Source of the DNA: Patescibacteria group bacterium
Lineage (GTDB): Bacteria > Patescibacteriota > Patescibacteriia > 2-02-FULL-49-11
Direction of reading: 5' to 3'
DNA length: 64,000 nt
Assembly: GCA_041645165.1 (NCBI GenBank)
Contig: JBAZQN010000004.1
Location: forward strand, 18,789 to 82,788
Position numbers and translations under genes: made by a program. This document shows, piece after piece, positions 4,322 to 48,404 of the stretch (the first letter of the stretch is position 1; the number at the start of each line of letters is the position of its first letter). The notes under the pieces are model-generated. The model was not told the DNA's origin. It did no database searches and saw nothing but the letters and a program-made list of their open reading frames with translations.

Positions 4322-5624
4322 TTATAGAGTCTATTGATAACCCTTCTTTCAATGCACCCAGTATGCCAGCTGCCTCCAGATAATTCCGCGCTCGGTAAAT
4401 ATTACTCTTGCTGACATTTAGTTTATCAGGTGTCACATCTAAGACTGTGGTATTATTTGTCACCGTGATGATCGGAATATGTAACTTATTTGCAATCAAT
4501 ACTGGGATGCCTCCGCAAGATGTTTCTGGACATACAACCGCTTGTACATCATTCCGAGTAACAACACTTGAGTATTTTTCCTGTGTAAATATTATTCTTG
4601 GAGCTTTTGATAGCCCTTTAAGCACACACACCAGACCGCTTTGCGAAACATATTCGCCGGCAGAGCGAGAATCAACCACGGAATATCCAACTGGTTTGTA
4701 ATTGAGAAGCGGCGCATGTCCGCAGGGCACGCCAAAACAATAACCAATCAGATGAGAAATAATCGCTTCCACGCCGCCGATAAGATTTGGCCATTTACCT
4801 CTTAAGTGTTTTTGGTACAAATTAGCATCAATCCCGTGAATAATAGAGGTTACCGCAATCGCGTCCGTGCCTGCTTTGAGAAGTTTTTCTGCATTCTTGA
4901 GCAACCCCTCTACATTTTTTATTGTTCCAACCATTGTTCCTGAAGGCGTCCTTTCGATTATCGCTCCAATACTCTCCGACATAACCTCTATAGCCGCGAC
5001 GTTAATGCCGTGTACCGCTTGCATAGCATTAACGATATTTTCAACTAATGCGAGTCCTTGTTTATCTACTTTCTCAATAAGAAGTCCAATTTTATTATTT
5101 CTGACTGGTGCAAAGCCGATATTCCCTAGCATTAATTGATCAATCATGAATCCTTCAACATAGAGTGCACTGTTTGGAATATTAAAAAAATCAGATGCGT
5201 TGTACACATTTGGGTGTGTAATCATGACATCTGATACCGTGGCAAGTAATTGATTTGCTGGCGCGGCATCGCCTGCAAAACCACCAATACTAGCACCAAT
5301 GCCGGTCGGAACTATATGAACTAACCCATAATGAGTGGAAGTTGTCTTTGTTTCATTGAGAGTAAGGACGAAAGGGTATTGGACTGAGACATTTGTAATA
5401 GTTGCCTCAACAATTGCCTGGCGACCCTTGATTGAATTTATACTCCATCGAAGAGGAAAATAGTTTTTTAATTGTTTATGAAATATTTTTAAGACACCGT
5501 CAAAGATGCTCTGACTTTTCTGCAGGCTTATCTTGAGTATCACGTTTTTTATACCTACTGTTCTTGTCATACTCCTGCGCTCTTTCCCACGCGAGTTTCC
5601 AAATTTCCTTCTGAGCTTGTGCAA
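4287..5624 (-). CDS. conserved hypothetical protein, possibly DUF3326-like. Start uncertain; possible internal start near 5570
   Basis: Long ORF with a glycine-rich motif VPTGIGASIGGFAGDA that I recall from the DUF3326 family. It is translationally coupled between the two rSAM genes and the TrmB gene. No catalytic assignment is possible. Confidence 0.45.
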   Translation of the reverse strand: MHKLRRKFGNSRGKERRSMTRTVGIKNVILKISLQKSQSIFDGVLKIFHKQLKNYFPLRWSINSIKGRQAIVEATITNVSVQYPFVLTLNETKTTSTHYGLVHIVPTGIGASIGGFAGDAAPANQLLATVSDVMITHPNVYNASDFFNIPNSALYVEGFMIDQLMLGNIGFAPVRNNKIGLLIEKVDKQGLALVENIVNAMQAVHGINVAAIEVMSESIGAIIERTPSGTMVGTIKNVEGLLKNAEKLLKAGTDAIAVTSIIHGIDANLYQKHLRGKWPNLIGGVEAIISHLIGYCFGVPCGHAPLLNYKPVGYSVVDSRSAGEYVSQSGLVCVLKGLSKAPRIIFTQEKYSSVVTRNDVQAVVCPETSCGGIPVLIANKLHIPIITVTNNTTVLDVTPDKLNVSKSNIYRARNYLEAAGILGALKEGLSIDSINGNNKNKKHVL

Positions 5625-6354
5625 AGGCGTGGCTTTTAATAATCATTCCGAACTTCTGTTCAAACTCCATAATTGCCACCTTATCGCTATAAATATTTAC
5701 CTCAAGTCCGAAATCGAAAGGAAGATCAACTAATTTGCTTTCACGGAGATGATTTTTGTCTCGGGCTTTGACGGATTGTGCGTATTTGGTATTCGGCATT
5801 ATAACCTTAATCGGTATTTTTTTATTTGTTCGCCTGTTGAAGTAATTTTCTATAAAATTTCCCAAGCGTTCATACACGATCTTGCCGCCGGCGTAAGCCA
5901 GAATTTCTTCTGAAGAGGTAAGCGTATCTTCATATACTTTCTTAATGCCCTCGATCCCTTCGTAAAAGCTTATTTCCGGTTTTTCTGTTCCAGTTTTATA
6001 AATTGTTTGCAGTTGGGCAATGATATCATCAACACTCAACTCGAGCTTTTTAGCGTTTCTCGTTACTCTTAAAACTATATCCTTAAGCCGCGCCGGGCTT
6101 AATGCCTTGATCGCCTTCCCTCTCCGCTTGTCTACAAGCAATTCAATCAACCCTTTCTCCAAAAGTGAATCAAGAACTTTATATCCCGTCACGCGGTCTA
6201 TGTGCGCCGCTTGTGAAATTTCTGGCACAGAAGCGATCCCCAAGGTAAGGGAGGCGGTATAAAATTTGATTTCACTATGAGATAAACCTAATTTCTTTAA
6301 AAAGTTGGTTATTTTTTCTTGTGGAAGCATATATTTTAGTTGATATATAGTCAA
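5500..6354 (-). CDS. TrmB-family HTH transcriptional regulator (paralog A). The likely true start is the internal Met at 6330
   Basis: N-terminal HTH (SHSEIKFYTASLTLGIASVPEISQAAHIDRVTGYKVLDSLLEKGLI) with a TrmB-like C-domain. It has two paralogs in this window (16887.., 47673..) sharing the FYEG..G....YED and K.PIK motifs. Confidence 0.7.
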   Translation of the reverse strand: MTIYQLKYMLPQEKITNFLKKLGLSHSEIKFYTASLTLGIASVPEISQAAHIDRVTGYKVLDSLLEKGLIELLVDKRRGKAIKALSPARLKDIVLRVTRNAKKLELSVDDIIAQLQTIYKTGTEKPEISFYEGIEGIKKVYEDTLTSSEEILAYAGGKIVYERLGNFIENYFNRRTNKKIPIKVIMPNTKYAQSVKARDKNHLRESKLVDLPFDFGLEVNIYSDKVAIMEFEQKFGMIIKSHAFAQAQKEIWKLAWERAQEYDKNSRYKKRDTQDKPAEKSEHL

Positions 6355-6410
6355 ATAATTATTATATTGTTAGAAAAAATAAGTTTGGTTAGCCAATAAT
6401 ATGATATCTT

Positions 6411-6431
6411 TTAGTTGACGATGTGTCAACT
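6411..6431. promoter_or_regulatory. perfect inverted repeat TAGTTGAC-N5-GTCAACTA in the promoter region of the rSAM/TrmB operon; candidate operator
   Basis: tagttgacgatgtgtcaacta sits in an AT-rich region upstream of the TrmB-A start. Confidence 0.3.
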
Positions 6432-6508
6432 AATAATAAAACCAACTCTGTAAGAGTGGCTGATAAAGATAATTATATAATCCCCATTACGGGGAATAAA
6501 TGAAATGC

Positions 6509-9500
6509 TTAGCCTTTCCACCACCTCTCTGCGGTGGTGTATTCGTCCCAGGCTTTCGCGGAGAGATCGTCTTCTTTTGTGGTGCTGAGTGAACGCAAAT
6601 ACATTTTCGCGATTTTGAGGTCAGTATGGAGAGGGATATGGCTGTCCACCGCCAATCTTCTGATAAAAAAGCCGTCAGTCCGCGAAGACGAGGTCTGACG
6701 GCGTTCAGGGATATTAATAACACAATCAACTTTCCTCCCCCTTATCCATTCGCTGACATTGGGGCTCCCCCCTTCGCTCACCTTGCGCAAGCACAACGTT
6801 TCGATGCCGTTATCCTCCAAAAAATTCGCGGTATGCTCCGTGGCGGCGAAAACGAATCCCTGACGGGAAAGTGCCTGGATATCAAAAAGAAGAATACCTT
6901 TGGCGGTATCTGGGCCGATCGAAAGGAGTATTGTTTTTTTAGGATAATAATTGCCTGCCGCCGCAATCGCCTTCAAAAAAGCCTCCTCATAAGAATCGCC
7001 GAAACAGGCCACCTCGCCGGTGGACGCCATTTCCACCGTAGGCTTCGGGTCCGCGCCTTTAATGCGGCTAAAGGAATACTTAGGCGCTTTCACGGCCACA
7101 TAATCAAGGTCAAGGGTACGGTAATCTCCGCGGATATCCTCACCGAGCATGGCGCGGGTGGCGAAATCAATAAAATTATAACGAGACACCTTTGACACGA
7201 AAGGAAATGACCGGCTTGCGCGAAGATTGCACTCAATCACCTGGATGCGGTTGTCTTTGACGAGGAATTGGATATTGAAGGGGCCGGTGATATCTAACTC
7301 TTTCACGATATTCCTGCATACGAGCTTCACCCGCCGCGTCGTTTCAAGGAACAGCCGCTGTGGGGGATAGACGACGGTCGCGTCGCCCGAATGGACTCCC
7401 GCGTGCTCCACGTGTTCGGTAACCGCATATAGCACCAGCTCACCCTTTTGCGCGACACCGTCGATCTCCACCTCTTTGGCGCCCTCAATGAATTTCGAGA
7501 CGACCACGGGATGATCCGGCGTCACGGCCGATGCCGCAGTAAGATAGCGGGTAAGCTCTTCCTCATCCTCCGCGACATTCATGGCCGATCCTGAAAGCAC
7601 GTAGGACGGGCGCACGAGTACGGGAAATCCCGCGGCATTGGCAAACGCGCACGCTTCGCGCACGGTAGTGAGCTCTTTCCATGCAGGCTGGTCTATATTG
7701 AGCCGGTCAAGAAGCGCGGAAAACTTGTGCCGATCCTCTGCGCGGTCTATATTCCGGGCTGACGTGCCCCACAGGGGCACTTTGGCGTGCGCAAGAGACA
7801 GCGCAAGGTTATTCGGCACCTGCCCTCCCATAGAGACCACCAATCCCCTCGGACGCTCAAATTCGCAGATATCCAGGATGCGCTCCAAGGTCAATTCCTC
7901 GAAGTAGAGGCGATCAGACATGTCATAGTCAGTGGAGACCGTCTCGGGATTTGAATTGACCACAATCGTGCGAATTTTCTTGTGCCGCAAAGTTTTGGCA
8001 GTATTCACGCAGCACCAGTCAAATTCAACTGAAGAGCCGATGCGATAGGGGCCGGAACCAAGCACGATGGCGGGGCGCCGCTCACGCGTTACATCATGTG
8101 CGCTCCCGTGGTAAGTGCAGTAGAGGTAATTGGTCTTCGCGGGAAATTCTCCCGCGGTCGTATCAATTTGTTTTACCGTAGGCACCACGCCGCATTGTTT
8201 CCTCAACCTGCGGACCGCGTGTTCTGTATGGGCGCACGCCTCAGCGATGCACGCATCTGAAAATCCTAACTGTTTAAGTTTTTTTAATGCAGGTGTGTTG
8301 CGCCTCACTTCGTCCCATCCTTTTGCGCGTAAGGACGCATACGCTCCCGCAAGCGTTTTGAGATGCGAGAGAAACCATGGATCAATGCCGCTCAAGCGCG
8401 CGATGCGGGAGACGTTCACCTTGTGCCCTAGCGCAAAGGTAAAGGCAAAAAGGCGCGACGGCGTAGGAATGCGGATATCGCGGAGCGCTTTCTCAAGGTC
8501 ATGATATCCGTTATTCATAAACAGTTCTTTTCCCAAGCACAACATCCTCACCGCCTTTTGAAGCGCCTCAGGGAAACTGCGCCCCAGCGCCATCACTTCG
8601 CCCACGCTTTTCATCTCTGAACCTATAGTAAGCTCGGCGGCGCGGAATTTCGTAAGGTCCCACCGGGGAATTTTTACTGCGATATAATCAAGAGCCGGTT
8701 CGAAAAAGCTGCCGGTCGCGCGCGTAATCGCATTGGGTATCGCATGGAGCGGAATCCCAAGCGCCGCTTTGGTCGCCACAAATGCCAGAGGATATCCCGT
8801 GGCTTTTGACGCGAGCGCAGACGAGCGGGAAAGGCGCGCATTCACCTCTATCACTCTGATACGAGGCATGACACGGCTTTTCACCCGAGGTTTCGGCTCT
8901 ACTGCAAACTGGATATTGCATTCTCCCACAATATCCAGGTGATGCGCCACCTTGAGCGCCATGGCGCGCAATAAATGGTATTCCTTATTGGAAAGCGTTT
9001 GCGAGGGAGCAACCACGATGCTTTCGCCCGTGTGGATGCCCATGGGATCCATATTTTCCATATTGCACACGGTAACCGCATTGCCAAAAGAATCCCGCAT
9101 GATCTCATATTCAATTTCCTTCCAACCTCCCAAGTACTCTTCCAAAAGGGCCTCTCCCCCCTGCGACAGCGCAGTGTTTAATAACTCCCTTAATTCACGC
9201 GGGTTGCGCGCATAACCAGACCCTAAACCTCCCAGCGAAAAACCAACACGTACCATGACCGGATAGGCAATGCGTTTTGCGAAGAGAAGCCCCTCCTCCA
9301 TATTCTTCACGGTGGTGCCGCGCGGCACCGCGATCCCGATCTTTTGAAGCCGCGCAGAAAAAGCAGCCCTGTCTTCAGTGTCATGAATCGTTTTCAGGGA
9401 AGTGCCTAAAACGCGGACCCGATGCCGCTTCAGAACGCCCTCGCGATCCAACTCAAGTCCGAGGTTCAATGCAGACTGGCCTCCCACATTCAAGAGGATG

Positions 9501-9769
9501 GCATCAGGGTGCTCCCGCGCGATAATGCGCGCAGCAAAATGAAGGGTCAGGGGAAGAAAATATACCCGATCCGCAAAATCCGCGTCAGTCTGCACGGTGG
9601 CGATGTTGGGATTTAAGAGAACAGTTTTGATGCCTTCTTCCTTAAGCGCCTTAATCGCCTGCGAACCGGAATAATCAAACTCTCCGGCTTGGCCGATTTT
9701 CAAACCGCCGGAACCGATGATAAATACTTTCTTCGGAAGGGTCTTTTTTGATAATGTGTTTTGCATCAC
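6509..9769 (-). CDS. carB: carbamoyl-phosphate synthase large subunit
   Basis: 1086 aa with duplicated ATP-grasp halves. N-terminus KKVFIIGSGGLKIGQAGEFDYSGSQA. C-terminal MGS-like domain. The last 15 codons are encoded by a dispersed 47-bp repeat (see findings). Confidence 0.95.
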   Translation of the reverse strand: MMQNTLSKKTLPKKVFIIGSGGLKIGQAGEFDYSGSQAIKALKEEGIKTVLLNPNIATVQTDADFADRVYFLPLTLHFAARIIAREHPDAILLNVGGQSALNLGLELDREGVLKRHRVRVLGTSLKTIHDTEDRAAFSARLQKIGIAVPRGTTVKNMEEGLLFAKRIAYPVMVRVGFSLGGLGSGYARNPRELRELLNTALSQGGEALLEEYLGGWKEIEYEIMRDSFGNAVTVCNMENMDPMGIHTGESIVVAPSQTLSNKEYHLLRAMALKVAHHLDIVGECNIQFAVEPKPRVKSRVMPRIRVIEVNARLSRSSALASKATGYPLAFVATKAALGIPLHAIPNAITRATGSFFEPALDYIAVKIPRWDLTKFRAAELTIGSEMKSVGEVMALGRSFPEALQKAVRMLCLGKELFMNNGYHDLEKALRDIRIPTPSRLFAFTFALGHKVNVSRIARLSGIDPWFLSHLKTLAGAYASLRAKGWDEVRRNTPALKKLKQLGFSDACIAEACAHTEHAVRRLRKQCGVVPTVKQIDTTAGEFPAKTNYLYCTYHGSAHDVTRERRPAIVLGSGPYRIGSSVEFDWCCVNTAKTLRHKKIRTIVVNSNPETVSTDYDMSDRLYFEELTLERILDICEFERPRGLVVSMGGQVPNNLALSLAHAKVPLWGTSARNIDRAEDRHKFSALLDRLNIDQPAWKELTTVREACAFANAAGFPVLVRPSYVLSGSAMNVAEDEEELTRYLTAASAVTPDHPVVVSKFIEGAKEVEIDGVAQKGELVLYAVTEHVEHAGVHSGDATVVYPPQRLFLETTRRVKLVCRNIVKELDITGPFNIQFLVKDNRIQVIECNLRASRSFPFVSKVSRYNFIDFATRAMLGEDIRGDYRTLDLDYVAVKAPKYSFSRIKGADPKPTVEMASTGEVACFGDSYEEAFLKAIAAAGNYYPKKTILLSIGPDTAKGILLFDIQALSRQGFVFAATEHTANFLEDNGIETLCLRKVSEGGSPNVSEWIRGRKVDCVINIPERRQTSSSRTDGFFIRRLAVDSHIPLHTDLKIAKMYLRSLSTTKEDDLSAKAWDEYTTAERWWKG

Positions 9770-9777
9770 AAAGGATA

Positions 9778-9886
9778 TAAATCAAAATGCAAATCTCAAA
9801 ATCCAAAATGAAAGTGTAAAATTTATAAATTTTGATTTATCATTTTGATTTTTGATTTTTGGATTTTACATTTATACGGTAAGGTG
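9778..9886. repeat. AT-rich inverted-repeat element (family caaaatgcaaa...cattttgatttttgatttttggattttacatt) between carA and carB
   Basis: Imperfect ~40-bp palindrome. The right arm 9841-9872 is identical to 62931-62962, and the left arm matches 62868-62895 with 2 mismatches. Confidence 0.7.
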
Positions 9887-9895
9887 CAGTATCCT

Positions 9896-11032
9896 TCATA
9901 GTAATTTTACAAACTCATCAAACAGATAATTCGTATCATTCGGTCCTGGATGCGCTTCGGGATGAAATTGCACCGAGATAAACGGCAGCCTCCGGTGTGC
10001 GATACCTTCAACGGTCTTGTCGTTGGCATTGCGGAACGATACGCGCCACTGCTTCGGCAGAGAAGATTCGCGCACCGCATATCCATGGTTCTGCGAGGTG
10101 AGCACGCAACGATGGGTGCCTTCAATGCGGCACGGCTGATTCTGCCCTCGATGGCCATAGGGCAACTTATATGTGTGAGCTCCCGCGGCAAGCCCCATCA
10201 ATTGGCTCCCAAGACAGATGCCAAAGAGGGGACGCTTTTGCCGAAACGCTTTTTGCAGAAGAGCGATAGTAGCGCGGCACTGCATGGGATCTCCCGGCCC
10301 ATTTGAAACCACAATGCCGTGAGCGCGAAGCCGGGTAAAATCATAGTCATAGGGCACGCGGGTGACCCGCACTCCGCGCGCTACAAGCGAACGCACGATA
10401 CTTTCTTTCGCGCCGCAATCAACTAAAATGACGTGCTTTGCGCCTCGCCCGACATGCGATACGCGCGGTACCGTGACCTGTGCCACAAGATTTTCTTCGT
10501 TGGGATCTTTGTTTTCCACATACGCATGACTGTGCACAATCGTCCCGCGCATCACCCCGTGCGCTCTGATCTTTTTAGTAAGCGCGCGGGTATCTACGCC
10601 CGCAAGGCAGGGCACTCCTTCCCTTATCAGCCACCGCGAAAAAGAATGCACGCCCTCCCAATGGCTCCAATGCTCAACGCACTCGCTTACAATCACCCCA
10701 CGGACCTGCATCTTTTTTGACTCCCAGCTCTTAGCGGATGGGACGCCGTAATTGCCAATAAGCGGATACGTAAACACGAGTATCTGCCCCCTAAATGAGG
10801 GGTCAGTGAGCGACTCGACATAGCCGACCATGCCGGTGGTAAATACTACCTCCCCCCCCGCAGATACAGGCGCCCCGCAGGACACCCCAGACCATCGTGT
10901 GCCGTCCACAAGGGCAAGTTCGCCCGCTAAAGGTGCCTTCCTAAAAGGCCAAAAAAATCCCCCTTGTGGGGGAATGGGAAAAACGGCAGTAGTTTGGGTG
11001 TTGGGCGCACGTCTGGTAGAGCGAAGAGGCAT
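9896..11032 (-). CDS. carA: carbamoyl-phosphate synthase small subunit (glutamine amidotransferase)
   Basis: GEVVFTTGMVGYVESLTDPSFRGQILVFTYPLIGNYG. GATase triad region GICLGSQLMGLAAG...HGYAV...FHPEA. The N-terminal ~40 aa are atypical and contain a GC palindrome. Confidence 0.9.
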   Translation of the reverse strand: MPLRSTRRAPNTQTTAVFPIPPQGGFFWPFRKAPLAGELALVDGTRWSGVSCGAPVSAGGEVVFTTGMVGYVESLTDPSFRGQILVFTYPLIGNYGVPSAKSWESKKMQVRGVIVSECVEHWSHWEGVHSFSRWLIREGVPCLAGVDTRALTKKIRAHGVMRGTIVHSHAYVENKDPNEENLVAQVTVPRVSHVGRGAKHVILVDCGAKESIVRSLVARGVRVTRVPYDYDFTRLRAHGIVVSNGPGDPMQCRATIALLQKAFRQKRPLFGICLGSQLMGLAAGAHTYKLPYGHRGQNQPCRIEGTHRCVLTSQNHGYAVRESSLPKQWRVSFRNANDKTVEGIAHRRLPFISVQFHPEAHPGPNDTNYLFDEFVKLL

Positions 11033-11336
11033 GGATGGAAAGGTTGAATTAAACCTTTATCTAAGACGCCCTGTAAAAATAACTTCACGCTTTGATTAAC
11101 TGCCTTGCCTGAAATAATAGCATTATATACAAGAACGACCCTATAAGTTATTTTTTCTGGCACCCTAAAAGACAGTATAACGGCAAAAAGGCTATCAAAC
11201 AAGTGGTTTAAGTCGAGTGTGCCCCCCCTGCCATCTTTAGGGGGCTCTAAGGCAAGATATTTTTCCACAGGCAGATGAATCCAAAGTGTTCATTTTTTCG
11301 CTTAAGTACGAATAAATTCAGCATTTTCCTCCCTTC

Positions 11337-11365
11337 TTGACTTTAGCTCTTTTCTCTGCTATACT
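11337..11365 (+). promoter_or_regulatory. near-consensus sigma70-type promoter TTGACT-N17-TATACT
   Basis: ttgact at 11337-11342, a 17-nt spacer, and tatact at 11360-11365. It lies ~550 nt upstream of the next + strand CDS. Confidence 0.45.
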
Positions 11366-11731
11366 GCTGATGTAAAAATAAAGTCACCCAAGTTAAGAAG
11401 CGGAGAGCGGAGGTCTCATCTTAGCTTTAAAAACCAAACTTAAGGTATTACCTCCGTTTTCTACTTCTCGAGGATAATATTCGCCGATATTATCCGCAGT
11501 TATAAAAATAACTGAAAAAATAAAAATAAAAAGTTTTATTTCGTACGCAATTACCCTTAAAAAAGGTATTGAATGTACGAGGAGGGAGGTAGAGAATATA
11601 GGGCTATTTAAAAATTCGGCAATAGCCTAAAGGGGCTTACATCATCATCTCCGCTTTTACCCACCAGGGTGAGAACGGGGTGGGTATTAGTCCCTTGAGG
11701 CCCACGCTGGACCCTATATTCTTTTTTATTC

Positions 11732-11758
11732 GGCCCCTAGCGGGGCCTCATTTTTTTT
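11732..11758 (+). terminator. Rho-independent terminator (ggcccc-tagc-ggggcc followed by T9)
   Basis: GC hairpin immediately followed by tcatttttttttat. It closes a ~370-nt non-coding transcript from the promoter at 11337. Confidence 0.45.
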
Positions 11759-11913
11759 ATTGCGCACTTATCCTATACATGGTAGTATCAATACACCTTA
11801 GGCGCCATAAAAAAAATAACAAATCCAGCCATTGGCATGATAGTTCTGGAAAACAAGGCTAAACCTTATGCTTAAGTGAAATGTTATTTTTTTAAGCGCC
11901 CTTACCTCATGAT

Positions 11914-12303
11914 ATGACTTTTCCGCTTTCACTTATCAAAGAGCAAAAAAAGAAACTCGAGCAAGAGCGCGACCAGCTGAAAAAACAGCTTGACGCCATC
12001 TCGAAACGCGGCAAGGGGAAAAAGCCCCGCGGGCTTGATGCGAAATTCCCCTCGTACGGAGACAAGGAGGATGAGAACGCCGCAGAGGTTGCCCAATATT
12101 CTGATGATCTTTCGCTCGAAGAGACGCTTGACCATGCGCTCGCCGACGTAGAGGGCGCACTGAAACGCATAGAGAACAGCACGTATGGCGTATGCCGGCA
12201 CTGCGGCGAAGCGATCGACCAACGGCGCCTTAACGCGCGCCCCTCTTCTTCCTCATGCGTAAAATGCAAACAGAGGCTGAAATCCGGCGGAGGAAAAAAA
12301 TAA
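11914..12303 (+). CDS. DksA/TraR-family C4 zinc-finger protein
   Basis: Coiled-coil N-terminus followed by CRHCGEAI...RRLNARP....CVKCK, the DksA/TraR signature. Confidence 0.7.
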   Translation: MTFPLSLIKEQKKKLEQERDQLKKQLDAISKRGKGKKPRGLDAKFPSYGDKEDENAAEVAQYSDDLSLEETLDHALADVEGALKRIENSTYGVCRHCGEAIDQRRLNARPSSSSCVKCKQRLKSGGGKK

Positions 12304-12327
12304 TATTCCATTGCGCGTAATCAGTGT

Positions 12328-12768
12328 ATGGATGTGAGGAAGTATTGCGGAGATAACAACAATGACATAATCGTATCCGCGCTTTTCGTACTCGACCGTG
12401 TATTGAAATGGCGCGCGCTCACCCATCCTCCTTCCCCCCCGGATGGTTTTTTTGTATATCACCAAAATCCCGGCATCGCGTTCTCACTGCCTCTAGCACC
12501 TATCCCGCTGATCACACTGCTTATCCTTGGCGTCGCGACAGTCGCGTGGCTGTATATCCAGCAACGTAAAAAATCAGTGCGGCACGCGCTCCCCTACCTC
12601 CTCATACTCGCAGGCGCCGTTTCCAATATCATCGACCGTCCGCTCTCAGGCGGAGTGATTGACTATTTTTTTCTTCCCCCTTTGGGATTGTATTTTAACA
12701 TTGCGGATGTCATGATAGTGGGAGGAATACTATTGCTTATCTTCAATAAAGATGAGAAGATAACATAA
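12328..12768 (+). CDS. lspA: lipoprotein signal peptidase (signal peptidase II)
   Basis: HQNPGIAFSL, AVSNIIDRPLSGGVIDYF, YFNIADVMIVGG motifs. Four TM segments. Confidence 0.8.
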   Translation: MDVRKYCGDNNNDIIVSALFVLDRVLKWRALTHPPSPPDGFFVYHQNPGIAFSLPLAPIPLITLLILGVATVAWLYIQQRKKSVRHALPYLLILAGAVSNIIDRPLSGGVIDYFFLPPLGLYFNIADVMIVGGILLLIFNKDEKIT

Positions 12769-14579: not shown

Positions 14580-15950
14580 TTAACGATCGAATGGCATCTT
14601 GCGATTAATCCATTCGATCAATTTCTGTCGCCACCGAGGTCGTTTCCCGCCTTGAGGAAGGAGAGGGAAGGTGGTGTTTTTCCCAAATGGCGTGAGAAGG
14701 ATGATGATGGTAAGGTAGGCAAGGTTGCTTGCCCACCTATGCCATCTGCGTGGGTGGGTGAGGGGAGAGCCCAGCGCGGCGAAGTCGAGGTTATAGAAGA
14801 AACTTGGATGACGAACTGTCTTCTCTACTGGCGCGGCGAAATTTACACTCATCCAGTTGTCGTTCTTCGGGATGAACATCTTCGCTAGATATGGTCTTGC
14901 CACTGCTCCGCAGAAGAAACTTTTACGAACACTGTACCAAACAGTCTTCGCAAGCGTTCGTAAGTTATCTTCAGGAAAGCCAAACACCATCAACAGCTCC
15001 GCCGTAATCCCGACTTCACGGCAAATTTCCAGAACACGGTCACCGAGGGATAACCGGTTGTGGGTTTTATTCTCATCACGCCAGACTTTCTCATCCGTAC
15101 CGTCGAAACCGAACCCAACCGCAAAGAGGTTGGCTTTCATTACCAATTCGTGAAAGTTCGGCAAGGTTTTATAGGCAGTGATAAATGAGGAAATGCAGGA
15201 GAGTCCACGGATGCGAATCTGCACCCCGGTCTTCTCACTCACATCTCCCACAATGGTGAGAAAGTCAGCGAACAACCGCGGGCTTTGAAACAAGTCCAAA
15301 CTGGAGATATAGAATTGTAATTTGGACAGTCCAAATTCTCTTGCCTTACCTGCGAGGTATTGCAGGTCGGTCCGAATCTTCTCGAGAGAACGGAACCGTT
15401 CCTGTCGTGATTTTGCCGCACCGCAGAATCGGCACGCAAAACGGCAGCCCTGCGCTACAAAGAGACCTGCTTCTTGCTCGAGATAAAGTTTCAACGCCTC
15501 GTCCGAGATAGTTTTGTACATCTTAACGCAGTCGATCTCAAACACATCTGGAAGTTGGTTAACGCCGAGTGCTTTTTTCAAGGTGCTATCATTGTTAATT
15601 TGGATAGGTTTATCGCCGAAGAGCGTTTTGAACTGATTAGGAAGCAATCCTTCAGTCACTTGTCCGCCAATAAGAATCGTGGCGCGAGGATTAACTTGAT
15701 ACACTTGGTTCGAGAACTGAATAGCGTCCGGCATATTAGAACTACCAACAAGAGAGGTACCAATAAAATCAGCTGCACGGACTTTATCTTGTACCCATTG
15801 CTCGTCAAGGGAGTTAAGATTGAGATCAATCAACTCGACCTCAAAGCCTGCCTCAATAAGTTGTGCACCCACAACGATCAGGGTGCTGGGCAGGTATATT
15901 TGCCGTTTCCCAAACGGGTACGGCAGATTAAACAGTGATATCTTTTTCAT
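14580..15950 (-). CDS. radical SAM protein with N-terminal B12-binding-like domain (second rSAM locus). The C-terminal ~50 aa are low-complexity and may be over-extended
   Basis: CxxxCxxC motif AQGCRFACRFCGA. N-terminal Rossmann-like domain. A glycine-rich GFGFDG region. Confidence 0.7.
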   Translation of the reverse strand: MKKISLFNLPYPFGKRQIYLPSTLIVVGAQLIEAGFEVELIDLNLNSLDEQWVQDKVRAADFIGTSLVGSSNMPDAIQFSNQVYQVNPRATILIGGQVTEGLLPNQFKTLFGDKPIQINNDSTLKKALGVNQLPDVFEIDCVKMYKTISDEALKLYLEQEAGLFVAQGCRFACRFCGAAKSRQERFRSLEKIRTDLQYLAGKAREFGLSKLQFYISSLDLFQSPRLFADFLTIVGDVSEKTGVQIRIRGLSCISSFITAYKTLPNFHELVMKANLFAVGFGFDGTDEKVWRDENKTHNRLSLGDRVLEICREVGITAELLMVFGFPEDNLRTLAKTVWYSVRKSFFCGAVARPYLAKMFIPKNDNWMSVNFAAPVEKTVRHPSFFYNLDFAALGSPLTHPRRWHRWASNLAYLTIIILLTPFGKNTTFPLLPQGGKRPRWRQKLIEWINRKMPFDR

Positions 15951-16004: not shown

Positions 16005-16559
16005 TTACCAAGAGAATTCGAGCCCCAGCAGGTTTCCTGCCCACTGGGTTGGTTTCCAAAGCCTCACTTTACAGCAGAAGCGCCCCCATCTGGCTTTGAC
16101 AAAGGGTCCAACTTTAAGCTGACGGCTCTCATTGAAGATCCAAATAAACTGTTCCCCAATTCCAATATCGAGTGATTTCTTTTTAAGAAGATGGAGGTCT
16201 GTGAGGTGGTAAAGCCATCTCCCCTTCCTAGTCACTGAAACTTGATTAAGGCCAGTGACATATTTGTTATCGACATAGCACTCAAAAGAAAATCCTGCAT
16301 AATGGCCAAACAGTATCCCAATGGCTGGGATAATCTTGAGTGGAGTGATTTGGAATGGTGTCGATTTGCCGATGAATGTTTCTAAGGTTTTTTCAAAGTG
16401 GTTATATCTTGCATCTATCCAAATTCCGCCCACTTTGATACTCCCCCATAGAAATGGCTCTATCCCTTTTTCGGTAGAAGCCATGAACAGCGTAAAATCT
16501 TGCGCGGACGCGGTGTCCACGCATGCGAGGGCTAAAAGCACAAATAATATCTTTTTCAT
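16005..16559 (-). CDS. hypothetical secreted protein (signal peptide MKKILFVLLALACVDTASA)
   Basis: Classic Sec signal peptide. 184 aa. Aromatic-rich with a C-terminal EFSW. It is paired with the rSAM gene and shares its leader motif. Confidence 0.5.
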   Translation of the reverse strand: MKKILFVLLALACVDTASAQDFTLFMASTEKGIEPFLWGSIKVGGIWIDARYNHFEKTLETFIGKSTPFQITPLKIIPAIGILFGHYAGFSFECYVDNKYVTGLNQVSVTRKGRWLYHLTDLHLLKKKSLDIGIGEQFIWIFNESRQLKVGPFVKARWGRFCCKVRLWKPTQWAGNLLGLEFSW

Positions 16560-16595: not shown

Positions 16596-16799
16596 TCTAT
16601 ATTTCGGATTTTAACGAGGTAGTATATGCCTGTGATAGCAAATGTATAGGCTATCTAAGACACTTACATTAGATATTGCAATTTTTTGGCTAATATAATA
16701 TAATAAAAGTGTCGGGGAAGTTTCCACAACATTGTCATGTAGAAGCCACTTTACGCCTTGAATAACGCAAGTTCACGCCATTGGTCATAACTCCCCTAG

Positions 16800-16875
16800 C
16801 CCCTCTTATCCTAAAGAGGGGGGAAATTGTGCGACACCCTCACCTTAATCCTCTCCCTTTCTAGGAAGAGGGGGT
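16800..16875. repeat. two GC-rich palindromes (cccctcttatcctaaagagggg; ctctccctttctaggaagaggg) upstream of TrmB paralog B
   Basis: Members of the CCCCTC..TTA..TAA..GAGGGG hairpin family seen throughout the window. Confidence 0.7.
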
Positions 16876-16886
16876 ACGAAAGGAAT

Positions 16887-17648
16887 ATGAAAGAAGATTT
16901 ATTAAAAATACTCGCAGATATTGGATTTTCGGAGAAAGAGGCGAAAGTGTATCTCGCCCTGCTTGCGCTTGAAGCGGCGACGGCGAATGAGATCGCAAAA
17001 AAAGCAGACATCAATCGGACATCAGCATATGATGTGTTGGAAATTTTAATTAAAAGAGGAGTGGTGAGCAAATACAAGAAGAAGAGCCGAACGTTTTTTA
17101 ACGTGAGCGATCCGAGGAAACTCATTGCATATCTCGAGCATGAAAAAGCTGATCACGAGAAGACGATTGAGAAACAGAAGACAGCGGTGTCCGTAATCCT
17201 GCCCGAGCTTATTTCTTTGCAAATGCCCTTAAGCACGAGGCCGAAGGTGCAGTTCTATGAAGGCGAAAAAGGAATGCGGGAGGCGTATGAAGATACGCTT
17301 AACGCGAAGGAAGGAATCTTGGCATATGCAAACGTTGAGACTGTTCATGCGGGTATTCCGAATTTTTTTCCGGAGTATTATCAGAGGAGGACAAAACTAG
17401 GAGTACCTATTAAAGCAATTTTTACAGAAAACGAACTTTCGCGTGAACGCGCTTCTCATAATCGGGAAGAGCTACGCCAAACAAAATTTTTACCTGATGC
17501 AAGCATGAAATTCTCGCCCGAGGTGAACATCTATAATAATAAAGTACTTATCGCGTCATGGCAGGAAAAAATGGCTGTGATTATTGAGTCCAAGGAATAC
17601 GCAGATCTCATGCGGCTGACGTATCAGTTGTTATGGGATCGGCTTTGA
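16887..17648 (+). CDS. TrmB-family HTH transcriptional regulator (paralog B). The ORF-track TTG start at 16827 is probably upstream of the true ATG
   Basis: MKEDLLKILADIGFSEKEAKVYLALL aligns with the N-termini of paralogs A and C. An RBS-like aaaggaa precedes the ATG. Confidence 0.7.
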   Translation: MKEDLLKILADIGFSEKEAKVYLALLALEAATANEIAKKADINRTSAYDVLEILIKRGVVSKYKKKSRTFFNVSDPRKLIAYLEHEKADHEKTIEKQKTAVSVILPELISLQMPLSTRPKVQFYEGEKGMREAYEDTLNAKEGILAYANVETVHAGIPNFFPEYYQRRTKLGVPIKAIFTENELSRERASHNREELRQTKFLPDASMKFSPEVNIYNNKVLIASWQEKMAVIIESKEYADLMRLTYQLLWDRL

Positions 17649-17760
17649 CTTTCTAGTGCCGTTACAATATAGTTTTCGGTGATGCGTTTCCATAATTCAT
17701 CCTATTTTATTATATATTTTATGAATGGTATATCTGAAATTCAAATTGTAACGGTACTAG

Positions 17761-34036: not shown

Positions 34037-34076
34037 TATAACACGGATTTCACCAAAATGCAACTTTATTATCCAT

Positions 34077-34457
34077 TCAATCTAAGCGGGTCGTGTTATT
34101 TTCTTTTTTAAACCAATTTATAAAAAATAAAATTCCAATAAAAAATGCAGGTCCCGCAATAATGAGCGACCAAGATATCATATACCATTCAAATGGACTC
34201 ATCATGAGCATAATAATATAGAGCACTCCGGCGAGTGTAAAAGCAATTCCTCCCACTATTTCATATTTCCATGAGATTAAGAGAACTGCCAATAAAATAA
34301 ACGCGGGAATATTGTGCATCAACAGTCCTACAATTGTTTGCCAAAAGCCAAGCTTTAACTCAAAAACATCTAATGAAAACAACACGAGGAAGAGGATGAA
34401 CATGATCGATAAGCCCCTTGGCGTCCAATATATAAATTTGCTAACCCTTTTTTCCAT
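34077..34457 (-). CDS. small membrane protein (4 TM), in an AT-rich island
   Basis: Strongly hydrophobic 126 aa. The codon usage is AT-rich like its neighbour. Confidence 0.4.
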   Translation of the reverse strand: MEKRVSKFIYWTPRGLSIMFILFLVLFSLDVFELKLGFWQTIVGLLMHNIPAFILLAVLLISWKYEIVGGIAFTLAGVLYIIMLMMSPFEWYMISWSLIIAGPAFFIGILFFINWFKKENNTTRLD

Positions 34458-34495
34458 ATTTCTGCATTAGGAAATATCAATATCTGGGGCTATTT

Positions 34496-36001
34496 TTATT
34501 TTAAAATTATATTGTCTTGTATCTCGGAAACTTCACTCACTTCAGCTCCATATCTCTTTATAATACTCAAAGTGTTGTTATCGATATAAAAATTAAACTC
34601 CTCACTACCATTTTTCTTTTGTAATTCAACGGCTTTATTGTAAAAAGTATAATTCTTGCCAACATTAATTTTTATTAAAACTCCACCAGCCATACTTAGT
34701 AGCGACTCACCAATACTCGGCCCCCTTTCTTCTAAAAATCCTATGAAGCCCGCACCTTGCCACATGGTTGGCATGTCCATATTATAAAAAGAATACTTAA
34801 TAACTGGATCAGGAGATATGATGTCGCTGTATTTATCTAAGAATTTAAAATACAGCGCAGCGTTTTTACTGCCAAAAAATTCATGACTCACGTTAAGCTC
34901 TAACTTAACTAAAGCAGAAGAGTTATTTTTAATTTCGTCTAACTCTCTTAAGTACTTTTCTAATACTTCAACATTCTGATTCAATTCAATTAATTTTTCG
35001 CCGCTTAATTTAGCTATTGATATGCCGACTAGCTTCACTATTAGACCATCATCTTTATCGCGAATTAATTGGTCACCAAATAATAATAGCTGATAAAGAT
35101 TTTCTTTTGCCTGCGAAAATTGATTGTGTGAAATTTGCTCATCCGTCAATTTAATAATCCCACGACTGAATGCACGCAAATTATTTAAAGGTACAATCAT
35201 ACTGTTACGATATAATATTATATCATCTGGCATATATTCTTCTGACAAACTCAAATACCCGGCTTGATTTAACAGGCGTAATACTTCCAGGTCGCCTTCA
35301 CTAGGTATAATATAATTAAAAGCACTTACTTCTGTATCATCCTTTTGTTGTTTCCTATTATTCAAATTATTTATGAGTTCAATAAATTTTGTCGCCGAGT
35401 TACCGTTTCGATCAAAACTATATCCCGTAATATTATTTATATTAATAGTGGGATATAGATAGAAATCTTCCTGAATGTCTGCATTTTTATAATTTTTGTT
35501 AAAGTTAATTCTATAAAGATAGAAATTCGCAGTATAACTAACAACTAGTAATAAAGTAATAGCAACAAATATTTTTCTACGCTTTTTTAAAATAAAAACA
35601 GAATATATAATATTTAAATAAACATAATTAAAAAAACAAATAAGTACAATATATACATAAAAAGGTGTGTGGTATGTGCTTGATATATTACTCGAATTAA
35701 GATAGAAAAAAGCAAATAACGTACCTAAAATTAATTGCAGTAATACCGTGGCAGTAATCAATTTTGAAATATTATTTTGAACTAACTCTTTGTTATTTTT
35801 ATTTAATATTTTAATAGTAAGAATAAATGCAACAGCTATAAATAAGATCTTAACAATTATACTAATTAGAAGAATGTTCAATAGTCTGACTGTTGAATAG
35901 CCTGATAGATTTAAAAGGGTGCTATAAGCACCATAAAGCAAACCGTAAAGCAGTCCATTCAAAAATAACATTTTTATTAATAATAATGTAAATTTTTTCA
36001 T
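34496..36001 (-). CDS. hypothetical membrane protein (N-terminal ~6 TM plus a large N/K/I/Y-rich soluble domain), in an AT-rich island
   Basis: 501-aa ORF with composition sharply different from the flanking genes. Confidence 0.5.
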   Translation of the reverse strand: MKKFTLLLIKMLFLNGLLYGLLYGAYSTLLNLSGYSTVRLLNILLISIIVKILFIAVAFILTIKILNKNNKELVQNNISKLITATVLLQLILGTLFAFFYLNSSNISSTYHTPFYVYIVLICFFNYVYLNIIYSVFILKKRRKIFVAITLLLVVSYTANFYLYRINFNKNYKNADIQEDFYLYPTININNITGYSFDRNGNSATKFIELINNLNNRKQQKDDTEVSAFNYIIPSEGDLEVLRLLNQAGYLSLSEEYMPDDIILYRNSMIVPLNNLRAFSRGIIKLTDEQISHNQFSQAKENLYQLLLFGDQLIRDKDDGLIVKLVGISIAKLSGEKLIELNQNVEVLEKYLRELDEIKNNSSALVKLELNVSHEFFGSKNAALYFKFLDKYSDIISPDPVIKYSFYNMDMPTMWQGAGFIGFLEERGPSIGESLLSMAGGVLIKINVGKNYTFYNKAVELQKKNGSEEFNFYIDNNTLSIIKRYGAEVSEVSEIQDNIILK

Positions 36002-40174: not shown

Positions 40175-40184
40175 CTCCCCTAAC

Positions 40185-40874: not shown

Positions 40875-40916
40875 GTCAAGTTTAGACGCTGTGAATAATA
40901 GCCTATCCATTCCGTC

Positions 40917-46085: not shown

Positions 46086-46273
46086 GGGTAAACAATCCAG
46101 TGTAAAACGCATACGTCACAACTCTAATTACGACAATGCCATAATCATATCCCCCGCTATTAGCAACGATCGTGGTATTTAGGCACAGGTATCTTTTCTA
46201 GTTTCCTCCTCCCGTGAAAATATAACTTTCATAACAAACCGCGTAATCATTTAACAGTTTAACAATTTATTTT

Positions 46274-46522: not shown

Positions 46523-46590
46523 TCTCTCTTCACGCTCACTCATAGAAACCCACTTCTGGCCTATTCCAAAAGTGGGTTTTATCTTTTAAT

Positions 46591-47559
46591 TCATAACTTT
46601 TTAAATACCGCTAAAATTGCCCCGCGCTTCAGATGACTACTCCCTCCATCGCCTACTGTCTGCCAATATCTCTCCAATACGAATTGCGGAAACAATCCGC
46701 GTAATTGATCGATGGTATAGCTTCTCGTGAGAAAGCGTTCTCTTCCGGCACGCATCTCAACTGCCCTGATCGTGTGTACTTCGGTGATTGCCCACTGCAC
46801 CACGTCCATGCATTCATCCATAAATTGATACAGCCACGGATTATCCCTATAAAGTTCCAGAGTATAGTCATCATCAATTGCCTGTCTCACGCCTATCACC
46901 AGATAATCGCCGGGAACGAGAAACCTCGTGAACATCGCAGCTGCCATTTGCTGGTCAGGAAAATTACTTAAGGTATTACCGATGAGAAAATAAACATACG
47001 ATTCACCATCTATGCATATTGGTAGCTCCCCTAAATGTTGGAAGTATCCATGCACGCCACGACTGAGTATTGCTCCCTTAGATTCAGGCCGCACTGACTT
47101 GCTTACCTGATACACTCCCGCAAAAAAATAATCAAGAAATAACGAATTAAGATCAATCGCTTCTACGAGTAAGGGCTTACTGTTATCCGCAGAAACCACA
47201 CAATATTCAACGATTTTTATTTCTACGTCCCCCGTGCCAACTCCCAAGAAAGACATTACTCTTCCGTGTGTCCTACGATTGAGCCACGGGAGTGCCTTCT
47301 CTATTAACGGCAACTCCTGCAAAACCGAACTATATGGATTGACACAGGCAGGAAGTGCGAGCCAAAAAACGCCGCGTTTCTCAAAATGTTCCTCCACGGC
47401 ACTCCTGTCCCAATATTCGCCAAGTTGCGTATACCGAGGAATGCTTTGCGCCTTGATTTTCTCAAATAATACTTGCGCCGGCTCAAATCCGCCTATTCTC
47501 GTAGGAACGCCCTCTGAGCACAGGTGATTATTTCCTTCGCTATTTACAATATTTACCAT
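46591..47559 (-). CDS. SAM-dependent methyltransferase, EgtD-like (Methyltransf_33)
   Basis: MSFLGVGTGDVEIKI (cf. ELGSGTSEKT), YFLIGNTLSNFP (cf. FLGSTIGNL) and LVPGDYLVIG (cf. LQPGDSLLLG) align by recall with histidine N-alpha-methyltransferase family motifs. Confidence 0.55.
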   Translation of the reverse strand: MVNIVNSEGNNHLCSEGVPTRIGGFEPAQVLFEKIKAQSIPRYTQLGEYWDRSAVEEHFEKRGVFWLALPACVNPYSSVLQELPLIEKALPWLNRRTHGRVMSFLGVGTGDVEIKIVEYCVVSADNSKPLLVEAIDLNSLFLDYFFAGVYQVSKSVRPESKGAILSRGVHGYFQHLGELPICIDGESYVYFLIGNTLSNFPDQQMAAAMFTRFLVPGDYLVIGVRQAIDDDYTLELYRDNPWLYQFMDECMDVVQWAITEVHTIRAVEMRAGRERFLTRSYTIDQLRGLFPQFVLERYWQTVGDGGSSHLKRGAILAVFKKL

Positions 47560-47672
47560 ACGGCGTAGTATATCTCTGTTAATTATTTCGACAATAAAAT
47601 TTTATTTATTTCGCTAAAATTAAAGAAAATTAACCACCTCCAACTTATTATGTAGAAATAAATTACAACTAT

Positions 47673-48404
47673 ATGCGCCATATAGAATCCATCCTTCATA
47701 CCCTCGGATTCAATAAAAAAGAAGCAAGGGTGTACCTTGCTTCCCTAAGGCTCGGACAAGCGCCTGCGAGTGAAATCGCGCGGGAAGTAACTCTTAACCG
47801 CGTGACTACCTATGAGGTGCTCAAGCGTCTGGTACACAGAGGCCTCGCCTCGGTTACAGAACAAAAACACGTAAAATATTTCAGCGTCTTGGGGCCTGAC
47901 AAGCTTTTCCAGCATTTCAAAACGAATATGGATGCACTGCAACAACACATGAAAGAACTCCTCTCCCTCACGCAAGGGAAAGGAGCGCGGCCGCGGGTCT
48001 CTTTCTATGAGGGCGCAGAAGGCTTGCGGGACGTCTACCGCGATTTTCACGCCTACCGCAATAGCGAAGCGCTCTCTTTTACCAACTGCAGAGCGCTCTA
48101 CGAAGGAATAGGCAAAAATTTCCTGTACCAAACCTACAAGAACCGACAGGCGCTCGGCATCACCGTGAGATCTCTCTGCCCTGACAATCCTGAAGATATT
48201 GCAGAGCAGCGGCAAGACGCGCGCGCGTCACGCCGCATCAAATTATTTCCCCACGAGAAATACCGCATCCCCAACGAAATGATCGTGTATGCGGATAAAG
48301 TGGCGCTCATGTCTTTCACCGACAAAATATCTATCGTGATAGAAAATAAAGAAATCGCAGAATCACTGCGAACGATCTGGCACATGGTTTGGGATCGGTA
48401 CTAA
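47673..48404 (+). CDS. TrmB-family HTH transcriptional regulator (paralog C)
   Basis: LGFNKKEARVYLASLRLG..ASEIA. It ends in WDRY like paralog B (WDRL). Confidence 0.7.
   Translation: MRHIESILHTLGFNKKEARVYLASLRLGQAPASEIAREVTLNRVTTYEVLKRLVHRGLASVTEQKHVKYFSVLGPDKLFQHFKTNMDALQQHMKELLSLTQGKGARPRVSFYEGAEGLRDVYRDFHAYRNSEALSFTNCRALYEGIGKNFLYQTYKNRQALGITVRSLCPDNPEDIAEQRQDARASRRIKLFPHEKYRIPNEMIVYADKVALMSFTDKISIVIENKEIAESLRTIWHMVWDRY

Follow-up and report, generated by a model that had tools for sequence, protein, structure and literature searches.

Three TrmBL2-like regulators in a patescibacterial genome fragment and their association with radical SAM enzyme genes

The 64-kb stretch of contig JBAZQN010000004.1 analysed here (the window; about 53 open reading frames (ORFs)) derives from an uncultivated, ultra-small Patescibacteria group bacterium, and the nearest relatives of its genes carry the label Uhrbacteria. 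Bacteria of the candidate phyla radiation (CPR), or Patescibacteria, represent a large share of bacterial diversity and are nearly all uncultivated; to our knowledge hardly anything has been established about how their genes are regulated. The window encodes three TrmB-type transcriptional regulators, P1, P2 and P3, each located close to an enzyme of a type that uses S-adenosylmethionine (SAM), which raises the question of what these proteins control and whether the SAM-type enzymes are among their targets. The original prediction, made from the sequence alone, viewed the three proteins as a lineage-specific expansion dedicated to SAM-dependent modification enzymes. The data presented below support a different view, in which P1, P2 and P3 are probably autoregulated local repressors related to TrmBL2, each with its own palindrome, two of which are components of a recurrent regulator/radical-SAM module.

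A search of the window with a hidden Markov model (HMM) of the family identified exactly three members, P1 (276 residues, positions 5500-6330, minus strand), P2 (253 residues, 16887-17648, plus strand) and P3 (243 residues, 47673-48404, plus strand). The three proteins score 41.5, 66.1 and 49.6 bits, respectively, against the Pfam TrmB family PF01978 (cutoff 25.6), align with each other over their full length at 29-32% identity, and have in common an F-Y-E-G-x-E-G motif, R167, K199/K217 and a C-terminal W-x-R. The original prediction of three full-length paralogs at these places with shared motifs was thus correct, including the P1 gene itself, but not the start of P1 at 6354; the ATG at 6330 is preferred over the TTG at 6354, in agreement with the 251-residue ortholog P0121.

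The predicted structure of P2 places the family close to the archaeal protein TrmBL2. The AlphaFold model, generated with 33 family members in the alignment (predicted local distance difference test score (pLDDT) of 94.4), displays a winged helix followed by a 34-residue helix (residues 78-111), predicted to mediate dimerisation, and one α/β C-terminal domain. In a Foldseek search the best fold matches in the PDB were four TrmBL2 entries, aligned over the full length (E 2e-14, template modelling score 0.39-0.57), after which the model matched only isolated winged-helix proteins; a structure of the sugar-binding TrmB type was not found among the best 50 fold matches. The long amphipathic dimerisation helix of the model aligns with the corresponding helix of both TrmBL2 and TrmB. 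Consistent with the fold comparison, TrmBL2 is the sole PDB protein that the family profile matches end to end (residues 11-262, E 5e-11), while the match to TrmB (3QPH) covers residues 7-111 alone, comprising the helix-turn-helix (HTH) and the coiled coil. The C-terminal domains of the three paralogs gave no Pfam match beyond PF01978 at E≤0.01. Within this domain E125, G126, G129, R168, K219 and W250 are nearly invariant across the family, and the E-G-x-x-G motif together with R168, K219 and W250 marks a conserved site.

TrmB and TrmBL1 contain an extra C-terminal sugar-binding subdomain that is missing from TrmBL2 (PMC4877046). Judged from the sequence and the model, this subdomain is also absent from the CPR family, which is not of the sugar-sensing TrmB type, and the sugar-responsive baseline from which the original prediction started does not apply. 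The NCBIfam equivalogs for sugar-sensing TrmB/TrmBL1 (NF040851, NF047390 and NF047392) returned at best 32.8 bits versus cutoffs of 500-650, and the TrmBL2 equivalog (NF041141) 21.9 bits for P2 and 20.1 bits for P3 versus a cutoff of 530. Because equivalog scores of the paralogs lie overall between 16 and 33 bits, against cutoffs of 500-650, the three proteins are on sequence criteria relatives, not members, of the named TrmB and TrmBL2 groups. In architecture the closest relative is TrmBL2 (Pyrococcus furiosus / Thermococcus kodakarensis TK0471; PDB 5BOX, 5BPD, 5BPI and 5BQT), which shares with the CPR proteins the extended winged HTH, the long dimerisation helix, a single C-terminal α/β domain, a length of ∼250-265 residues and the C-terminal Trp. 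Unlike TrmBL2, however, the CPR proteins are bacterial, display only ∼20% identity to the archaeal protein, carry the near-invariant F/Y-E-G-x-E-G motif, and belong to a family with many paralogs per genome and local gene partners. With TrmB/TrmBL1 (Tgr) of Thermococcales and VNG1451C of Halobacterium they share the N-terminal PF01978 winged helix and coiled coil and, as candidates in the CPR proteins, palindromic operators, but they are shorter (243-276 versus ∼340 residues) in the absence of the sugar-binding subdomain. The TGM operator has the sequence TATCAC-N5-GTGATA. It is the operator named for TrmB/TrmBL1-type regulators (PMC4877046).

P2 is the most widely distributed of the three paralogs. 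At least 867 homologs at ∼60% identity were retrieved by a word-indexed search, and a genome scan that sampled P2 orthologs only, with one genome per species, yielded 80 loci at 52-84% identity from Uhr-, Kerfeld-, Falkow-, Moran-, Portnoy-, Campbell-, Magasanik-, Komeili-, Peregrini-, Peri- and Gracilibacteria. An exhaustive profile search at E≤1e-30 gave 5,886 clusters (50% identity) for the entire family. The distribution of P2 across CPR lineages, and the size of the family, contradict the proposal of a lineage-specific expansion. P1 and P3 are rarer and more divergent than P2; thirty homologs of P3 were found, the closest displaying 88, 52 and 47% identity over the full length.

The promoters of P2 orthologs contain a conserved palindrome that is a probable operator, TGTCGA-N7-TCCACA. 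The consensus of these promoters consists of TTGACA, a spacer of ∼17 nt with GGCT, TGATATAAT, a further ∼6 nt and TGTCGA-N7-TCCACAACA, and 52 of 78 P2 genes have the TCCACAA core in their upstream region, in one and the same orientation behind TTGACA...TGATATAAT. In the window the predicted P2 promoter (TTGCAA, 17 nt, TATAAT; 16676-16704, plus strand), whose architecture is kept in more than 50 orthologous promoters, is followed by the candidate operator TGTCGG-N7-TCCACAACA (16710-16731, plus strand), which starts 5 nt after the −10 box and lies over the expected transcription start. With a position weight matrix (PWM) score of 28.2, compared with a maximum of 19.5 in shuffled sequence, this site is the sole strong match in the 64 kb. 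The 80 loci contain 75 strong P2-type sites, of which 62 coincide with the P2 promoter and 7 more with that of an operon whose last gene is P2; three are directly upstream of a radical SAM gene (L059, L062 and L065), and the remainder are at other paralogs. The estimated ATG is no more than ∼11 nt past the site in half of the site-bearing promoters and no more than 35 nt past it in approximately four-fifths. The fourth pair of the half-sites is a C.C mismatch in 31 of 40 sites, and because this mismatch is conserved the element is likely a protein-binding site and not an RNA stem; a hairpin in place of an operator is therefore disfavoured.

Two observations concern the region between this site and the P2 coding sequence. 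In the window a hairpin-rich leader of ∼150 nt (16735-16886) separates the operator from the ATG, with a predicted fold of −51 kcal/mol for 16707-16900. L014 has a partly similar insert, and the 84%-identical ortholog in L013 has none, its ATG being 7 nt past the site. The possibility that the leader is a repeat element was discarded, as there was no other copy in the sequence examined. In other loci the P2 promoter and operator are separated from P2 by genes, namely an AbiEii toxin-antitoxin pair, an AAA_14/DUF4143 ATPase or a small ORF (L016 and L026 (4549-5974); L017, L021, L059 and L079; L043), which appear, from the gene order, to have been inserted into the autoregulated P2 transcription unit.

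Radical SAM genes are concentrated at the divergent side of P2. Among the 80 P2 loci, in which these genes were detected by an iterated HMM, 31 of the 34 radical SAM genes are found one to three places upstream of P2 (positions −1, −2 or −3) in divergent orientation, corresponding to 31 of 219 genes at these positions versus 3 of 672 elsewhere (odds ratio 36.8, p=7e-17). The divergent arrangement occurs in 30 of the 80 species, from at least seven named CPR lineages, and paired and unpaired P2 orthologs are interleaved on the tree. The extra operator copies in L059, L062 and L065 lie upstream of radical SAM genes at position −2 or −3. The partners are of two types. The first comprises orthologs of the B12-binding radical SAM enzyme that is the divergent partner of P2 in the window (14580-15950, minus strand), found at the same position in six other loci (E 1e-54 to 1e-129). 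The second, in ∼25 loci, is a SPASM/twitch-like family of 375-500 residues. The radical SAM enzyme of the P1 operon (3242-4321) is a full-length member of this second family and clusters with 20 P2-paired enzymes at ≥30% identity and ≥70% coverage.

The association was also evident when viewed from the enzymes. In a metagenome scan that sampled one radical SAM subgroup, a divergent regulator of the family lies within ∼400 nt of the radical SAM gene in 9 of the 58 loci with enough upstream sequence. Two of the nine regulators are P2 orthologs, and the rest form an intermediate group displaying 38-48% identity to P2 and 32-41% to P1, with a site of the form TGTCGA-N6-TCCACA; members of this radical SAM family are thus also paired with regulators within the similarity range of P1. 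The radical SAM loci, 498 kb in total, contain six P2-type sites, five beside P2 orthologs and one upstream of an unpaired radical SAM gene (L114). An obligatory module, as seen from the enzyme side, was rejected on the basis that only these nine loci are paired and that unpaired genes, except in L114, have no operator. The pairing is strongly enriched in both directions and is not obligatory. The expectation that regulator and SAM-type enzyme would stay together in related genomes holds for radical SAM enzymes with P2 and P1, but not for P3 and its methyltransferase (see below).

The paired enzymes contain either the motifs CxxxCxxC and GxGEP with conserved C-terminal cysteines, or a B12-binding domain with a radical SAM domain. 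None of the curated NCBIfam cutoffs was reached by the radical SAM enzymes; the best score was that for HpnR (157 versus 650 bits), the others being ≤61 bits versus cutoffs of 131-750, and the best weak matches were to PqqE, MoaA, NirJ, HpnR, BchE and peptide-maturase-type families. In motifs and domains the enzymes resemble those of SPASM maturase and B12-radical SAM clusters (PqqE, anaerobic sulfatase maturase-like enzymes, sactipeptide maturases, HpnR and BchE), but, unlike these clusters, they are not accompanied by a conserved gene for a precursor peptide or another partner. The idea of a third component conserved between regulator and enzyme, for instance a precursor peptide, was rejected as the genes in that interval are mixed (AbiE toxin-antitoxin, AAA_14 ATPase, a 100-residue protein and others). 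The 100-residue protein, conserved between the radical SAM gene and P2 in L027, L028 and L053, has the pattern MA(Q/R)(F/Y)FHGTSS...L..I...GL. In L032 a distant paralog (29% identity to P2) is divergent from a B12-radical SAM and radical SAM pair (9272-12622), recalling the enzyme pair of the P1 operon, and the same locus additionally holds a P2 ortholog, which is divergent from a further radical SAM gene. The 440-residue neighbour of a P1-like regulator in L175 was considered as a further candidate and is not a radical SAM enzyme.

P2 itself is divergent, in the window, from a gene for a 184-residue protein with an N-terminal signal peptide (16005-16559, minus strand), followed by the B12-radical SAM gene. 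The 184-residue protein has no family match and is absent from orthologous loci. A divergent promoter-like site for this operon (16621-16648, minus strand) has its −35 element where other loci carry an upstream hexamer, in degenerate form here (TGTATA). Of 66 promoters, 31 have this hexamer, TGTGGA/TGTCGA, beside the divergent promoter and at a distance of 65-70 nt on the upstream side of the main P2 site. It may act as an auxiliary half-site, as the −35 box of the divergent promoter, or as both.

P1 is located directly downstream of carA-carB and heads an operon on the minus strand in which it is followed by a DUF3326 gene (4287-5570), a radical SAM gene (3242-4321) and a B12-binding radical SAM gene (1808-3202). 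The first of the two enzymes (PF04055) has C-terminal auxiliary-cluster cysteines of the SPASM/twitch-like type; the second (PF02310 and PF04055) resembles HpnR and BchE, far below the cutoffs of both (HpnR 157 bits versus 650). The PF04055 scores of the three radical SAM genes of the window are 46.7, 48.4 and 33.3 bits (cutoff 29.5). The neighbours listed in the original prediction were as described, except that it omitted DUF3326 after P1 and the pyr genes after P2. A predicted promoter after carA-carB (TTGACA, 17 nt, TATCAT, 11 of 12 consensus positions; 6401-6429, minus strand) precedes P1. Over its −35 box lies a first candidate operator, GTTGA-N7-TCAAC (6414-6430), the only exact match in the window, whose half-sites are kept in L009 with two spacer bases changed. 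A second candidate with one mismatch (6339-6355) ends 9 nt before the P1 ATG and is identical in L009. The window contains three sites of this type with no more than one mismatch, two of them in the 180-nt P1 promoter region. The sequence TTCCACAAG occurs within the first codons of P1 (6320-6330; ATG CTT CCA CAA G). It corresponds to the right half of the P2-type operator, an element normally found immediately ahead of the ATG, and may be the remnant of an ancestral operator, or a chance occurrence.

The DUF3326 gene (PF11805, 300.8 bits) is missing from the 93%-identical P1 operon in L008 and L009, in which the order carA-carB-P1-radical SAM-B12-radical SAM is otherwise retained. Its start is uncertain, the first ATG being at 5570 and the Pfam domain beginning ∼250 nt further in. 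The 25-residue C-terminal tail of P1, lacking in the 93%-identical ortholog, overlaps the DUF3326 ORF (5500-5575), and the interval 4001-6000 displays a lower GC content of 0.40. The absence from L008 and L009, the overlap with the P1 tail and the GC content suggest that the DUF3326 gene is a recent insertion. Functional literature on DUF3326 was not found.

P3 is divergent from a gene for a 322-residue protein (46591-47559, minus strand), with which it has a 113-nt region in common. The candidate P3 operator, TGTAGA-N7-TACAA (47651-47668, plus strand), ends 4 nt before the ATG and is the only match in the window, compared with 0.27 expected. Two copies of this type of site are present in the equivalent intergenic region of L011, which contains the 52%-identical ortholog, one of them 7 nt from the start of a methyltransferase gene. 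The identification of the 322-residue protein as EgtD-like is only weakly borne out. The motifs LGVGTGD and FLIGNTLSNF are visible, but the Pfam Methyltransf_33 score (19.1 bits) is below the cutoff of 23, the NCBIfam EgtD score is 13.9 versus 290.9, and there is no PDB sequence match. A single-sequence model, without an alignment, had a pLDDT of 32.6. An EgtD-like SAM methyltransferase is thus a possible assignment. The association with P3 is weak, as a methyltransferase adjoins only one of four related loci: in L011 the divergent methyltransferase is unrelated to the 322-residue protein, while the relatives in L012 (47%) and L174 (39%) adjoin binding proteins and that in L173 (43%) small unknown genes.

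The original prediction suggested a search for a motif in the three promoter regions. A candidate palindrome is present at each, but the three palindromes differ. A single operator for all three paralogs was rejected, since a scan with the P2 weight matrix gave no site ahead of either P1 or P3.

In the most likely model each paralog, acting as a dimer or a dimer of dimers, would bind an imperfect palindrome of its own near the start codon. P2 would occupy TGTCGA-N7-TCCACA, which immediately follows the −10 box and covers the expected transcription start, P1 would bind the two copies of GTTGA-N7-TCAAC, and P3 TGTAGA-N7-TACAA. Each protein would thereby repress its own transcription. It is probable that the same proteins also control adjacent genes, because the operators are located in short shared control regions or in the operon itself. 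Thus, P1 is predicted to be co-transcribed with the DUF3326, SPASM-like radical SAM and B12-radical SAM genes, P2 would share a back-to-back promoter region with the 184-residue protein/B12-radical SAM operon, and P3 may act through the 113-nt region common to it and the possible methyltransferase gene. The regulator/radical-SAM unit would then be an old, recurrent and non-obligatory two-gene module of the CPR, present in two copies in the window whose DNA specificities have diverged. The data themselves establish homology, fold, the conservation and specificity of the operators, and the neighbourhood statistics; that the proteins bind DNA, act as repressors, control adjacent genes and respond to a ligand is inferred.

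The model resembles the logic of LysR-type and many MarR/IclR-type regulators, in which a divergent autoregulator stands beside its target operon. In the CPR proteins, similarly, the regulator is divergent from its presumed target, the predicted operator covers the regulator's own promoter or transcription start, and a C-terminal domain is available for an effector. The C-terminal fold, however, is unrelated to those of LysR/MarR/IclR-type proteins and, unlike in these systems, the P2 site of the window is not over the predicted divergent promoter.

Several observations weigh against local autoregulated control as proposed here. The P2 operator of the window is ∼60 nt or more from the predicted divergent promoter, a scan of the window with the PWM found no second P2-type site near the B12-radical SAM operon, and the upstream hexamer could simply be the −35 box of the divergent promoter. 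Control of the 184-residue protein/B12-radical SAM operon by P2 in this genome is consequently the least secure link of the model, because no operator copy is close to the predicted promoter of that operon. The candidate operators of P1 and P3 were spotted by eye, and their support consists of one or two orthologous loci. Viewed from the radical SAM genes the pairing extends to 16% of loci, with most unpaired genes having no operator, and 50 of the 80 P2 orthologs have other, highly variable upstream genes. The paired enzymes belong to more than one type (SPASM-like and B12-binding), and comparison with NCBIfam gave a function for none of them. In addition, the neighbour positions rest on longest-ORF gene calls made in this analysis.

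The variability of the upstream genes invites the view of the paralogs as generic local regulators, housed in a conserved divergent-promoter cassette whose cargo is interchangeable, radical SAM genes being a frequent cargo with no functional tie to the regulator. The back-to-back promoter layout is indeed kept irrespective of whether the divergent gene encodes a radical SAM enzyme, the upstream neighbour is a singleton or belongs to a small cluster at 34 of 76 loci, AAA_14 genes and toxin-antitoxin pairs have come to lie between promoter and P2 in several lineages, and the tree interleaves paired and unpaired orthologs. Random cargo, however, would hardly generate a 37-fold enrichment of a single superfamily, nor the presence of the same radical SAM family with P2, the intermediate group and the P1 operon, nor dedicated operator copies upstream of radical SAM genes at −2 or −3. 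This interpretation is therefore unlikely, if still deserving of consideration.

Local repressors in a recurrent regulator/radical-SAM module remain the preferred explanation, which may be extended by proposing that a P2-type protein and the divergent radical SAM enzyme constitute a CPR-wide sensor-effector module. The C-terminal domain, with its nearly invariant E-G-x-x-G, R and K residues and its three to seven tandem copies in some relatives, would bind a small molecule that the radical SAM enzyme produces or consumes, such as SAM, 5'-deoxyadenosine or the product of the enzyme. The extension is speculative and rather unlikely to hold in full. If true, the module would control a widespread modification chemistry specific to the CPR, and its regulon could be predicted in thousands of uncultivated genomes via the operator.

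Dedication of a lineage-specific TrmB expansion to radical SAM enzymes and methyltransferases, in response to one shared metabolite, is favoured by an observation in the window itself. Only four SAM-type enzyme genes are present among the ∼53 ORFs, and all are within two genes of a paralog; the probability that three randomly placed genes would all be within two genes of a SAM-type gene is 0.012, in a test that was chosen after seeing the data. In L011, moreover, the P3 ortholog is divergent from a methyltransferase gene with an operator copy close to its start, and another paralog of this locus precedes the rRNA methyltransferase gene ksgA. The near-invariant C-terminal motif is compatible with a common class of ligand across the family. 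Against this, P2 is found throughout the CPR and the family numbers thousands of clusters. The 60 genes flanking 34 other paralogs (35 with the duplicate L008/L009 pair) include seven Peripla_BP_6 genes, the commonest type, four Radical_SAM genes and two RecQ genes, with RuvB, UvrC, DNA_alkylation, KsgA and others once each, as well as dehydrogenases and response regulators. The other relatives of P3 adjoin binding proteins, ABC transporters or unknown genes, and the methyltransferases of the window and L011 are unrelated to each other, that of the window being itself a candidate. The three operators also differ, a point that has no bearing on which ligand is bound. Exclusive dedication to SAM-dependent enzymes is thus not upheld by the flanking genes, and the proposal as a whole is improbable.

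The position of the regulators among nucleotide biosynthesis genes would suggest a role in pyrimidine metabolism. P2 is followed on the same strand by pyrC, pyrD, pyrF, an LDcluster4 gene and pyrE, with no terminator-like site predicted between P2 and pyrC, while P1 follows carA-carB. The P2-pyr order is also present in L013 (84%) and L014 (82%), and the carA-carB-P1 order in L009. Pyr genes, however, occur at only 2 of the 80 P2 loci, those of the two closest relatives. A promoter-like site of its own precedes pyrC (17645-17673), P1 has its own 11/12 promoter after carB, and no operator-like site was found upstream of carA or the pyr genes, making this role quite improbable. The location of both regulator/radical-SAM modules among pyrimidine genes (1808-22333) is kept in the closest relatives only (L009, L013 and L014).

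TrmBL2 is an abundant tetrameric chromatin protein that coats DNA and acts as a global repressor (PMC3031468, PMC4877046), and the fact that it is the closest solved structure and the only end-to-end PDB sequence match could imply that the CPR proteins are likewise nucleoid-associated, coating DNA with low specificity and repressing globally so that neighbourhoods are irrelevant, but this is highly improbable given that, unlike in DNA-coating TrmBL2, each paralog is tied to a specific candidate palindrome at its own promoter, that the high-information palindrome tracks the P2 gene across the CPR and is almost missing elsewhere (one site in the 64 kb, 69 of 75 at P2 or its operon promoter), that several paralogs per genome (up to seven in 12.7 kb) have distinct sites, as is typical of specific regulators, and that P2 scores 21.9 bits versus a cutoff of 530 with the TrmBL2 equivalog.

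Autoregulated winged-helix repressors beside their targets are commonplace, and the local repressors proposed here introduce no new principle. Identified here are a transcription factor that is 52-84% identical across many candidate phyla, a probable operator conserved over the same range, and a statistically strong, recurrent coupling with uncharacterised radical SAM enzymes. In the literature searched there was no paper joining TrmB with Patescibacteria or the candidate phyla radiation, and nothing relevant for TrmB with names of CPR lineages or with radical SAM. The P2 operator offers a concrete and inexpensive experimental entry to gene regulation in the CPR, for which one recombinant protein and a site of 20 bp would suffice, and a motif for predicting regulons from metagenomes; together with the module it provides a testable handle on both the regulation and the radical SAM chemistry of these bacteria. 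The findings also correct the automatic annotation 'sugar-specific transcriptional regulator TrmB' carried by many such genes.

Other members of the family displayed features of their own. Paralogs form dense arrays: L011 contains five within 15 kb and L033 seven within 12.7 kb. The divergent neighbour of most paralogs in these two arrays is either a small gene or one of the Peripla_BP_6 type. A paralog in L025 has the site GTCGA-N7-TCGAC. Tandem forms (P0171, P0172, P0177, P0181 and others) of 510-1,080 residues contain one winged helix and coiled coil followed by three to seven copies of the ∼135-residue C-terminal domain, their lengths increasing in steps of ∼136 residues; we know of no prior description of this architecture. 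P2 orthologs at 57-67% identity with a CPR-type promoter are present in records titled 'uncultured Gammaproteobacteria' or 'Bdellovibrionales' (L015, L034, L037, L039, L042 and others), the taxonomic labels of which are probably wrong.

Two further observations relate to the window itself. A DNA-repair gene is located directly downstream of P3 and of its two closest full-length orthologs with usable flanks, encoding in the window the UvrD helicase (48423-50600), which converges on P3, and in L011 and L012 co-directional DNA_alkylation (7752-8579) and UvrC (7737-9578) proteins, respectively. Finally, a low-GC island at 32060-36001, in which GC falls to 0.30 between 34001 and 36000 compared with ∼0.50 elsewhere, contains ORFs of 501 and 667 residues with no Pfam match and a DUF7670 gene, and may have been horizontally acquired.

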